DNA of 21,890 bases. It comes from a virus (Duplodnaviria; Heunggongvirae; Uroviricota; Caudoviricetes). Positions 4,363 to 6,409 of this stretch are shown piece after piece. The notes beneath the pieces were generated by a model. The model did not search any database. It saw only the letters and a program-made list of their open reading frames with translations, and was not told the DNA's origin. The first letter of the stretch is position 1; every line of letters starts with the position of its first letter. A program made the translations under genes and the position numbers. The stretch lies in IMG/VR virus record IMGVR_UViG_2529293041_000014, one strand, 5' to 3'.

Positions 4363-4530
4363 TATCGCGTCCTCAACAATGAATTTTGTGATGTGGTGCC
4401 TGGTGCCTCCAGGTGACGTTAACCAGTTAACAATTAACGCCGGATACAGAGAATCCACCCATAACACTGTTTTTGGTTTTAACTGTTCCGCGTGCGCTCA
4501 GCCGCATTCACCGCATCACAAAATTCACTT

Positions 4531-4589
4531 TAAAAACGGCGGCAGAGCAGTCACGGAGTAAAACTGATACCGCCAAACGTCACCAGAAA
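4531..4589 (-). ncRNA. dicF: DicF small regulatory RNA (Hfq-dependent; targets ftsZ mRNA among others)
   Basis: Minus-strand sequence UUUCUGGUGACGUUUGGCGGUAUCAGUUUUACUCCGUGACUGCUCUGCCGCC followed by a U-tract matches the known 53-nt DicF; correct position and orientation upstream of dicB. Confidence 0.8.
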
Positions 4590-4920
4590 ATTGATAACAG
4601 AGGGCGTTGCAGCGGGGTTGTCGCTTAAGCGTATGGTCAACCTGACAACCCGGTGTCCTCAACGGGGAAGGAATAACCCCGCCATACTTACCGCCGCGCC
4701 ATTTCGCGGAGTGCCACAACCGGAAGCGCACGGTCGAACTAAATTTAACGACACCGTACAGAGAGACCAATTTCGCCGTGCGCTTTCGCGTTATGCCCTG
4801 ACTTTTCAGGGACATATCCTTTCAGTAAACTGTCAGTGCCGGATGTTCACCCGTGTCCGGCGCACGCACTCCACCTGACCCGTGGAGAACTCCTTAATTA
4901 CCAACCCTCAGGAGGGTGAA

Positions 4921-5199
4921 ATGGATAAAAAGCAAATTGAGGCCCTGCAATCTATTATTGAAAAACAAGATGAAGCTATCAGGATTCTTTCATATCGCAC
5001 TGATATGATACTAAATATGCTTTCTGCATTAACGGCTGCGCTTGGTGGTACAAAAACAAACGTATACCGCGAAGTTGTTATTCAACAGATAGATAAATTT
5101 GAAAAAACCATACCAGGTATTAATGCTCATCTTGCAGAACAAGAGAAAGACCATGCTCTTATGGCAATTTCTTCAGTAGCTCTCCCGAAAGTTGAGTAG
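4921..5199 (+). CDS. Hypothetical protein (92 aa, predicted helical), encoded antisense to the surrounding leftward early operon
   Basis: ORF with a near-ideal RBS (AGGAGG, 6-nt spacer, ATG at 4921); no recognisable motif; convergent 41-nt overlap with the 3' end of the 5159-5572 gene. Confidence 0.45.
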   Translation: MDKKQIEALQSIIEKQDEAIRILSYRTDMILNMLSALTAALGGTKTNVYREVVIQQIDKFEKTIPGINAHLAEQEKDHALMAISSVALPKVE

Positions 5200-5572
5200 T
5201 TTTAATTGTTGTTTTGAAATAATCACTGCTTTCACATTTGAGTGATTTCATGGCAATCCAAATGCGGGCCTCTGTGCCTGCATTTGGTTCCAGTTGCTGT
5301 AGACGTTTTGCGTCTTCCAAAAGTAAGGCGATAATGTGTTTCAGCTTCTCATCATTTGCTTGATTCTTGTTTTCAGGCGAATTCTGTCCGCCGAATAGGC
5401 GCTTCTCTTCATACAGACCTATAAAGGCACGACGCACGTTACCGGATATAGTATCGATGGTTTCTTTTTCTACGGTACTCAGGTCAAGAGTCGCCAGTTG
5501 AGAGCGAACCACATTCGATGCCATTTCCTGGAATGGTACTGGTAAATCTTTAAATTCCATCGTCAACCTCAT
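5159..5572 (-). CDS. Hypothetical prophage early protein (137 aa)
   Basis: ORF in the leftward operon; its ATG overlaps the stop of the upstream YdfA-like gene by 1 nt (TGATG coupling); no recognised domain. Confidence 0.5.
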   Translation of the reverse strand: MRLTMEFKDLPVPFQEMASNVVRSQLATLDLSTVEKETIDTISGNVRRAFIGLYEEKRLFGGQNSPENKNQANDEKLKHIIALLLEDAKRLQQLEPNAGTEARIWIAMKSLKCESSDYFKTTIKTTQLSGELLKKLP

Positions 5573-5724
5573 CAGTCAGTGTTTCTGGTTAACCAGCGAC
5601 GCGCGCCAGCTTCAGTTTTAAACGTTTTGCTTCTGGTATACGTCATCGCGGTAAACGTGCCGTCCTGGTTGGGGAACACGCCACATACCAGAGATTCGTT
5701 GTTGCCAAGATTGAGCATATCCAT
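5572..5724 (-). CDS. Small YdfA-like protein (DUF1391-type), 50 aa
   Basis: Internal Met of the 77-aa ORF with GAGGT RBS; translation MDMLNLGNNESLVCGVFPNQDGTFTAMTYTRSKTFKTEAGARRWLTRNTD resembles K-12 YdfA as far as I recall; first gene downstream of the OL-like operators. Confidence 0.5.
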   Translation of the reverse strand: MDMLNLGNNESLVCGVFPNQDGTFTAMTYTRSKTFKTEAGARRWLTRNTD

Positions 5725-5910
5725 GTTGACCTCATTTCCCCTTAACGCCGGGGTAGCGGAACAAAAACCTGCTGCATAGTTATTAAAGTTGAACCCTGCC
5801 GTCATGTTCTTACGCCTCGGGCTGGCTACTTAACCCCTGACCACTGCCTGGTAACTCGAAGTATTGCCCTGCATTCTGTGGGGCGGGGTGGGTTGGTATG
5901 AAAAGAAGGA

Positions 5911-5947
5911 TACCCATAGGTATTTAAAAGGTAAATACCCATGGGTA
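5911..5947. promoter_or_regulatory. OL-like operator pair: two 12-bp TACC-N4-GGTA palindromes 25 bp apart, downstream of the repressor gene and upstream of the leftward early operon
   Basis: tacccataggta (5911-5922) and the perfect palindrome tacccatgggta (5936-5947); the same half-site recurs in the repressor/cro intergenic region. Confidence 0.45.
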
Positions 5948-5989
5948 AATTTTTGCGGGGTCTTAACTGGTGACTAGTTGTTTGGTGAG

Positions 5990-6409
5990 CTATGATGCGT
6001 TTTGTGCTTTCTTTTTACGGATTTCTTCGTAGATCATATTGTAATACTGTTTTTTCTCTTCAAGAGTTTTTAATAATTTATCCGCTTCACTTTCTGGCAG
6101 TTCGTCTAAGAGATCTAAAAAAATACGTTGTCGTGGCGTTAGAACCCTTGTTTCATAACTGGAGGCTGTGTTCGTTGATGATGAAACGATACCATCCATC
6201 CATCCCCGGGGTAACCCAAAGGACTCTTCGATAATCTCCACCATATCATCAGCGATCCGTTTTTTTCCCTTTTTCCCCTCTGGGTACAACATTCTTGATA
6301 CATAAGAAGGCTCGCGCCCGATCTTTCTGGCCACGTTAACCGCTTTACCATCGCATTTCTCATCACGAATTTTGATGAGTTGCTGTCGTCTAAATTCATA
6401 TTTGTCCAT
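5990..6409 (-). CDS. Phage repressor, cI/DicA-like HTH protein
   Basis: 139-aa ORF divergent from a Cro-like gene; C-terminal segment LDLLDELPESEADKLLKTLEEKKQYYNMIYEEI resembles the DicA C-terminus (LELFNALPESEQD...); flanked on both sides by operator-like palindromes. Confidence 0.7.
   Translation of the reverse strand: MDKYEFRRQQLIKIRDEKCDGKAVNVARKIGREPSYVSRMLYPEGKKGKKRIADDMVEIIEESFGLPRGWMDGIVSSSTNTASSYETRVLTPRQRIFLDLLDELPESEADKLLKTLEEKKQYYNMIYEEIRKKKAQNAS

Follow-up and report, generated by a model that had tools for sequence, protein, structure and literature searches.

We analysed a 21,890-nucleotide stretch of viral DNA (IMG/VR virus record IMGVR_UViG_2529293041_000014, Caudoviricetes; hereafter the window). 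The window is a Qin/DicF-type lambdoid prophage, and its region 4400-6000 is 99.8% identical to the prophage beside ompW in Escherichia coli O127:H6 E2348/69. Read from right to left, the gene order is repressor, DUF1391, a gene for a 133-amino-acid (aa) protein, a gene for a 92-aa protein on the plus strand, DicF, DicB, DUF1482 and exonuclease VIII, an arrangement that identifies it as the early-left dicBF operon found in Qin-type lambdoid prophages (PMC5069750). The subject of this work is the 92-codon open reading frame (ORF) at 4921-5199 (+), placed between the 133-aa gene and DicF. As an earlier note on this DNA had read from the sequence, it opposes the leftward early operon, and the ORF coordinates bear out the 41-nucleotide (nt) overlap of its 3' end with that of the 133-aa gene. 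On balance, we think that the 92-aa ORF is probably an independently expressed, lysogen-phase accessory ('moron') gene in the sieB slot, which would be silenced by antisense pL transcription on induction.

The two convergent genes

The plus-strand frame spans 4882-5199 when a GTG extension is counted; from the ATG at 4921 it encodes 92 aa (RefSeq WP_000358771, phrog_18692), with AGGAGG at 4910-4915, 5 nt ahead of the start. This gene is genuine and under purifying selection. Comparison with the Salmonella copy (72% aa identity) gave a dN/dS of 0.19-0.25 and substitutions in the ratio 20:11:32 at codon positions 1:2:3, and omega-type values in the five other frames over the ORF ranged from 0.4 to 3.1. 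Its G+C content is 36% in a window of 46%, and when the segment is shuffled a frame of 92 codons stays open in only 0.08% of cases. An exhaustive profile search retrieved remote homologues of 90-93 aa (33-44% identity) in which the full length and the C-terminal SVALP motif are kept, and across the family, at 33-74% identity, length, Shine-Dalgarno sequence (SD) and start are all preserved. Fifty-one of the 57 E. coli loci in IMG/VR have an intact ORF; a +1 T frameshift affects five, and a contig end cuts one. In all the frameshifted copies (L058-L062) a single T is added to one and the same short T-run (~4989-4991), on two different backgrounds, and this shared T could reflect recurrent slippage, shared ancestry or homopolymer sequencing error.

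The 92-aa protein is predicted to be small, slightly acidic, soluble and amphipathic, consisting entirely of helices (three), with no membrane segments. We rejected a membrane-toxin reading because its most hydrophobic stretch, MILNMLSALTAALGGT, is not kept hydrophobic in the homologues, where the equivalents are polar-rich. Searches of Pfam, NCBIfam, PADLOC and PDB sequences with the 92-aa and 133-aa proteins gave nothing above noise; RefSeq labels both products hypothetical protein, and in PHROGs both fall only into families of unknown function. The AlphaFold models of the two proteins are of low confidence (pLDDT 68.6 and 66.3), and Foldseek against the PDB returned nothing at E <= 0.001, the only matches being to generic helical bundles at E > 0.1, from which we draw no conclusion. 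Literature searches with the protein accessions and on ymfI/ymfJ function found nothing functional. The 92-aa family is narrow in range, mostly E. coli and Salmonella, and a scan of one genome per species contained no copy. The Gifsy-1 accessory gene STMMW_26411 (PMC7067206) was considered as a homologue and set aside, there being no link to the 92-aa family and no family copy in the species-representative genomes.

The convergent minus-strand gene (5159-5560; RefSeq WP_001339605, phrog_1363) encodes 133 aa beginning MEFKDLP. The earlier note had described an ORF at 5159-5572; that ORF exists, and its start is most likely the ATG at 5560 rather than 5572, because RefSeq uses the former, the collected relatives begin MEFK[DG]LP, and GAGG stands 7 nt upstream. 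Residues 1-62 (5375-5560, -; pLDDT 81-86) form an N-domain common to proteins with other C-terminal parts. Residues 69-107 (5240-5356, -) form a YmfJ-family motif region in which the motif LKHIIALLLEDAKRLQQLEPNAGTEARIWIA (residues 69-103) equals the start of YmfJ from the K-12 element e14 and is nearly invariant in about 100 small proteins of 40-119 aa. These Enterobacterales proteins come from Escherichia, Salmonella, Citrobacter, Enterobacter, Cronobacter, Erwinia, Hafnia and other genera. The family motif ELKHVIALLLEDAKRLQQxEPNAGTEARI is present near the domain start in the 133-aa protein, and its gene has the family's position as first or second gene of a repressor-controlled leftward operon. 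Neither protein had been recognisable to the earlier note, which still holds for the 92-aa protein; the C-terminal part of its partner belongs to the e14 YmfJ family, which is itself uncharacterised.

The 133-aa gene is likewise under purifying selection. Its omega is 0.23 against the copy in locus L007 (91% identical), and over the conserved motif about 0.07 against its Salmonella counterpart, a free-standing 71-aa YmfJ-like protein. The last 26 residues, including 13 encoded in the overlap, are predicted to be disordered and are fast-evolving (dN 0.7-0.8). The earlier note had named loss of either ORF in related prophages as evidence against its reading; both show codon-level constraint. Late SOS induction of e14 ymfJ under CI-like control has been reported (PMC11002266), as expected for the first gene of a leftward early operon. 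An 8-bp inverted repeat at 5258-5287 (CCAAATGC / GCATTTGG) lies exactly within the codons of the near-invariant YmfJ motif PNAGTEARIW; in Salmonella one arm is altered and pairing survives only as G-U on the plus strand. An RNA or DNA element at this place could conceivably contribute to the very strong conservation of the motif.

A structured leader and a reused cargo slot

Upstream of the 92-aa gene, the loop and 3' arm of hairpin H1 (CCCTGA-CTTT-TCAGGG; 4796-4811, +) contain TTTTCA (4803-4808), the putative -35 element of a candidate sigma-70 promoter, TTTTCA-N17-TAAACT (4803-4831, +), which has 8/12 matches and a predicted transcription start at about 4836-4838. The earlier note had pointed to 4815-4920 as the place to look for a promoter; no consensus-grade promoter lies there, and the best candidate is this one, slightly upstream. 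In 45 distinct leader copies each TAAACT position is conserved to at least 90%, the flanking spacer less so, and the candidate matches in position better, extended -10 elements in e14 (TGGTATGCT), in L068 (TGGTATGAT) and in the P2-like locus L065 (TGTTATTAT). A homologous H1 hairpin, with a TTTTC loop and compensatory arm changes, is found upstream of Rac sieB, of e14 ymfI and of the 90-93-aa genes of loci L068 and L069. A first MAFFT alignment had treated the e14, L068 and L069 hairpins as H2, an assignment rejected on re-alignment, which places them with H1. The possibility that H1 is a nut site (boxA/boxB) was also dropped, since strand, element order and loop do not fit.

Three further hairpins are predicted downstream of the candidate promoter. 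H2 (4836-4863, +) has 10 pairs, four of them G-U, and shows compensatory changes in relatives. H3 (CUCCAC / GUGGAG; 4869-4887, +) reads CCCAAC / GUUGGG in L065, with two pairs altered on both sides, and 98% of the alignment cells of helix 2 hold a standard pair. In H4 (4890-4915, +), the RNAalifold consensus pairs an anti-SD, CUCCU(U) at 4890-4895, with the SD AGGAG(G) at 4910-4915, and 4 of 8 distinct rows carry an A-U/U-A swap (CUCCU/AGGAG versus CUCCA/UGGAG); a single-sequence minimum-free-energy fold pairs this stretch in another way. The near-consensus ribosome-binding site described in the earlier note is real but probably masked by H4, because its AGGAG (4910-4914) is predicted to pair with the anti-SD CUCCU at 4890-4894 and this pairing is kept by compensatory change in relatives.

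The leader structure is conserved. Over the whole leader alignment 94% of cells hold standard pairs, versus 37-54% in slid controls, with nine pairs changed on both sides, these numbers leaning towards structure because the alignment was fitted to the model and includes two weak matches. The G-U pairs are valid on the plus strand only and would become A-C mismatches on the other, and the three-hairpin structure is kept in Salmonella, in the P2-like element and in an integrase island. The leader matches no Rfam family. In the integrase island (L066 and L067) the leader copy is degenerate, with C-to-U changes that preserve G-U pairs; the 91-aa homologue there lies beside the integrase (L066 5001-5276; L067 415-690), and the island also has a TacA antitoxin and a type II restriction-modification system.

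The leader opens onto a variable cassette (4907-5592). Sequence match with phage Tritos and K-12 Qin ends at window position 4906 and resumes at 5593; between these points both carry ydfB-ydfC and no plus-strand gene. When viral contigs were searched with the H2 hairpin pattern, more than 120 loci were retrieved. Behind the common leader and SD stand the 92-aa family, a distant 91-aa homologue (hhalign 96%, 27% identity) or unrelated ORFs of 77, 73-74, 96 or 63-69 aa, each cargo being an intact ORF set precisely after the SD; about 60 distinct sequences, of Qin type, have the leader without any cargo ORF. Judged from this comparison of loci, the 92-aa gene belongs to a set of at least six unrelated small ORFs that occur as cargo behind a common upstream unit. 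A known function was sought for the cargos, and none was found.

In locus L007 (E. coli FHI_NMBU_10) a different ORF, of 57 codons (2243-2416), stands behind the leader; it reads MQVDIISPVTDPYACAH and ALLALINAGKIENSAMCFEELKQLVRLYEYIKKQSQDTA on either side of an in-frame TAG and is either a cargo in decay or a shorter gene that starts at an internal ATG. The 133-aa gene of this locus is intact, and the last ~40 nt of the 92-aa gene survive as its tail. The promoter-like element and H2/H3 (window 4796-4915) are about 95% identical in K-12 Qin and phage Tritos (L002 3440-3547; L070 2526-2633, -), where they lie in antisense orientation opposite the 'long untranslated region' that precedes dicF. 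K-12 Qin may produce an unannotated antisense transcript, with a predicted start at about NC_000913.3 1,649,132 (-).

The two convergent genes are mutually independent in their occurrence. Their overlap (5159-5199), which includes the TAA of the minus-strand gene at 5159-5161, encodes the conserved SSVALPK end of the 92-aa protein together with the disordered, fast-evolving tail of its partner, and an identical 41-nt overlap is present in Salmonella and in L065. The C-terminal motif of the 92-aa protein is kept even at loci without any overlapping gene; the overlap would therefore be dictated by the cargo gene, with the partner tail merely reading in. The convergent neighbours of the 92-aa family vary between the 133-aa protein, the 71-aa protein and, in L065, an unrelated 214-aa helix-turn-helix protein, and in four loci (L066-L069) the family has no overlapping partner and stands next to an integrase or faces a CI repressor. 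Conversely, frameshift (5 loci) or replacement (L007) of the 92-aa gene leaves the 133-aa gene intact, and about 169 complete genomes carry the partner C-terminal part, versus 127 with the 92-aa gene. YmfJ-type partners face at least four unrelated cargos (classes A, C2 and E, and YmfI), and cargos of classes A' and C face the same partner mid-domain, only the cargo-adjacent tail differing. In DicF-type prophages each cargo class is paired with one particular C-terminal class of MEFKDLP protein. We conclude, on this comparative evidence, that the linkage of the two genes is most readily seen as physical, through cassette exchange between conserved arms, and not functional.

Proposed mechanism and alternatives

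Among the closest known counterparts of this locus is sieB of Rac, a gene also known from lambda and P22. Its position and orientation are equivalent, between the first small early-left genes and the block with the sRNA and division inhibitor (racR, ydaG and ydaF, with sieB on the other strand, then the KilS small RNA (sRNA) and kilR); it is antisense within an early-left operon, converges on and overlaps a DUF1391-type neighbour (ydaF/sieB, 4 nt), and has a homologous upstream hairpin element. In Rac, however, leader hairpins H2-H4 are missing. SieB is a superinfection exclusion protein that aborts the lytic growth of superinfecting phage. Rac SieB has 162 aa and a hydrophobic-rich N-terminal half, and SieB proteins in general have about 160-190 aa and hydrophobic membrane segments, whereas the 92-aa protein has no membrane-like segment, no similarity to SieB in sequence or size, and no Pfam, NCBIfam or PADLOC match. 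According to PMC10883804 and PMC12197685, sieB is prophage-expressed and modulated by antisense RNA, P22 sieB being silenced by the pL-derived sas RNA. The annotated KilS of Rac (L064 4406-4503) takes the place that DicF has in Qin-type prophages; a literature search on KilS found no paper.

We propose the following mechanism. A weak promoter of its own, the TTTTCA-N17-TAAACT element, would drive rightward transcription of the 92-aa gene. The transcript would open with an 85-nt three-hairpin leader whose last hairpin masks the SD, so that translation would be gated. In the lysogen, where the leftward operon is repressed, the rightward transcript could accumulate; on induction, strong leftward transcription would run antisense through the whole gene and silence it, as with P22 sieB and sas RNA. 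In L068 and L069 the space between the CI gene and the homologue's 3' end contains a pL-like promoter (-), such that leftward early transcription would run antisense through the homologue, and this geometry holds in the window too. The 92-aa protein would most likely serve a prophage-expressed function directed at incoming phages or the host (exclusion-type) rather than a lytic step. The 133-aa gene would be an ordinary early-left gene that combines a conserved N-domain with the YmfJ-family motif, and the 41-nt overlap would be a by-product of cassette exchange, arising because the dispensable tail of this gene reads into the cargo 3' end, rather than a coupling device.

The earlier note had placed the gene among independently expressed accessory inserts, and in this respect it behaves as supposed: it is AT-rich and patchily present, has its own conserved promoter-like element and leader, and takes the sieB position, which together suggest separate expression. 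Like prophage morons, which are independent transcription units set between phage genes, it has a deviant base composition, is present or absent in close relatives, is oppositely oriented and has its own upstream regulatory element; it differs from them in that no terminator was found in the window and in that its insertion site is a reused slot with a common leader, not a one-off.

Other systems share parts of this layout. In e14, a repressor is followed by a YmfJ-motif gene (-) and a convergent small plus-strand gene, with a 63-nt 3' overlap and a homologous upstream element, but YmfI (113 aa, phrog_8894) bears no relation to the 92-aa protein, YmfJ stands alone and is not fused to a MEFKDLP N-domain, and the leader is short and lacks H2-H4. 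The mRNAs of type I toxins (hok-type) resemble the predicted transcript in having a structured, SD-pairing 5' leader and a fully complementary opposite-strand RNA, here the pL transcript. They differ in that the product here is a soluble, amphipathic helical protein of 92 aa and not a short hydrophobic peptide, and no dedicated small antisense RNA gene was identified at the locus.

Several points weigh against the accessory-gene reading. The candidate promoter, at 8/12, falls below the 9/12 matches that the promoter scanner takes as its threshold and was not called. No plus-strand terminator was found in the window after 5199, whereas the homologous genes of L068 and L069 have terminators of their own. 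The leader, carried by more than 4,700 E. coli genomes, persists without cargo in most DicF prophages and may serve another purpose there. The frameshifts in 5 of the 57 copies fit weak or conditional selection, the gene is carried by only 127 of 5426 complete E. coli genomes, and tblastn found the protein in none of 50,697 isolated phage genomes. Finally, an exclusion-type or host-modulating role is suggested by slot position only, as the protein lacks membrane segments and resembles neither SieB nor any defence model.

A broader reading, which we put forward tentatively, is that the conserved promoter and the three-hairpin, SD-masking leader form an undescribed expression platform with interchangeable small-protein cargos from at least six unrelated families. 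Such a platform could lie antisense to the early-left operon in the DicF-type prophages of most E. coli genomes, with sieB and ymfI perhaps standing behind a related, shorter version. It is conceivable, too, that the leader gates translation by temperature, by processing or by pairing with the leftward transcript. We know of no description of a common structured leader with interchangeable cargos. If this reading is right, the cargos, the 92-aa family included, would form a stock of exclusion or host-modulating proteins still to be characterised. Most E. coli genomes carry the dicBF region in a cryptic prophage, and it has been studied for its toxic sRNA and peptide. The strand opposite the 'long untranslated region' upstream of dicF has a conserved promoter-like element and structured leader, with different small genes in different strains, and if these are lysogen-expressed exclusion or host-modulating factors the site offers a simple route to new ones and would help to explain the mosaic differences among prophages that are otherwise alike. 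The 92-aa gene is an uncharacterised addition to the early-left prophage morons; the leader with interchangeable cargos, a computational inference, is the more interesting result.

The main rival to the accessory-gene reading holds that the functional unit is the rightward RNA itself, a cis-antisense that opposes leaky leftward transcription into toxic dicF-dicB by collision or RNase III cleavage, with the cargo ORFs as passengers. A brake of this kind would explain why the leader is kept without cargo in Qin-type prophages: the promoter region, H2 and H3 are about 95% identical in Qin, Tritos and some 60 distinct cargo-less loci. The structure is specific to the plus strand, and as no plus-strand terminator follows the gene the transcript would continue into the early-left genes as their antisense. 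Expression of DicF and of DicB is toxic, and the dicBF transcript is cleaved by RNase III in processing (PMC5069750). We nevertheless regard this explanation as unlikely. The ORF is constrained at the protein level (omega ~0.2), its length, SD and start are kept across 33-74% identity, every cargo is an intact ORF placed precisely behind the SD, and masking of an SD is meaningful only if translation matters.

Less probable still is that the convergent genes encode the two proteins of one cognate module, of the toxin/antidote or colicin/immunity kind, in which the induction-controlled leftward protein has a harmful, variable C-terminal part that the constitutive rightward protein neutralises. 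The constant match of each cargo class with one MEFKDLP C-terminal class in E. coli DicF-type prophages would fit, as would the presence or absence of both genes together relative to Qin and the 41-nt overlap common to E. coli, Salmonella and the P2-like element. The layout also resembles that of pore-forming colicin operons, in which a convergent immunity gene with its own promoter lies next to an SOS-induced gene; here too a small gene converges on an SOS- or induction-controlled one, but the two proteins are not obligatorily linked and the small one is not a membrane protein. A toxin/antidote pair, which the earlier note had raised, is unlikely because each gene occurs without the other. 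The 92-aa family lacks an overlapping partner in L066-L069 and faces an unrelated 214-aa protein in L065, the 133-aa gene persists alone beside frameshifted or replaced cargos, and the C-terminal part is found in about 40 more genomes than the 92-aa gene. YmfJ-type partners lie opposite four unrelated cargos, those of A' and C differing only in the tail, and the overlapping tail of the partner is predicted to be disordered and evolves fast. The genes are convergent, not co-directional and co-transcribed as in type II toxin-antitoxin systems, and their co-occurrence is not obligate. No toxin-antitoxin or defence model matched, and the search for a recognisable toxin or antitoxin family gave only a RelB-like match below threshold (E 0.011; 15.9 bits, where the cut-off is 50). 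In practice, the 92-aa gene is best treated as a single-gene accessory function and not as half of a toxin/antidote pair.

We also think it improbable that the 92-aa gene is an early anti-defence or host-takeover gene, active in infection or induction. It does sit among early genes, and many unrelated, small (63-96 aa), soluble and uncharacterised proteins occupy this one slot behind a common regulatory element, but its orientation opposes the early promoter, and strong early transcription would work against it. No isolated phage genome has the gene, and sieB, the sole characterised occupant of an equivalent slot, is a lysogen-expressed exclusion gene. That the ORF is a chance open frame or mis-annotation, antisense of a long untranslated region, is very improbable: the lack of functional annotation anywhere, the narrow family and the frameshifted copies would suit it, but codon-level analysis refutes it, with purifying selection in this frame only, length-conserved homologues at identities as low as 33%, and an AT-rich frame very unlikely to be open by chance.

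Neighbouring features

The leftward operon begins with a YdfA-like DUF1391 gene (5572-5724, -), preceded by a repressor-like gene (5990-6409, -) whose 139-aa product has no Pfam match. Between the repressor gene and this first leftward gene lies a 16-pair palindrome (5911-5947, TACCCATGGGTATTTACC...GGTAAATACCTATGGGTA) that the scanner called terminator-like; an operator (OL) for the 139-aa repressor is the likelier reading. Downstream of the 133-aa gene, the next element of the leftward operon is the DicF sRNA (4537-4588, -; Rfam RF00039, 72.5 bits), beyond which dicB, the DUF1482/YdfD gene and the exonuclease VIII gene follow on the same strand. A 96-codon ORF at 4525-4815 (-) overlaps DicF and the long untranslated region. 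Its first 52 residues match phrog_8854 and RefSeq does not annotate it; it is probably a mis-call in phage genomes over non-coding RNA sequence. Elsewhere in the prophage are a sok antisense RNA (hok/sok-type module, 117 bits) at 12181-12356 and two tRNA genes at 15255-15327 and 15421-15494.

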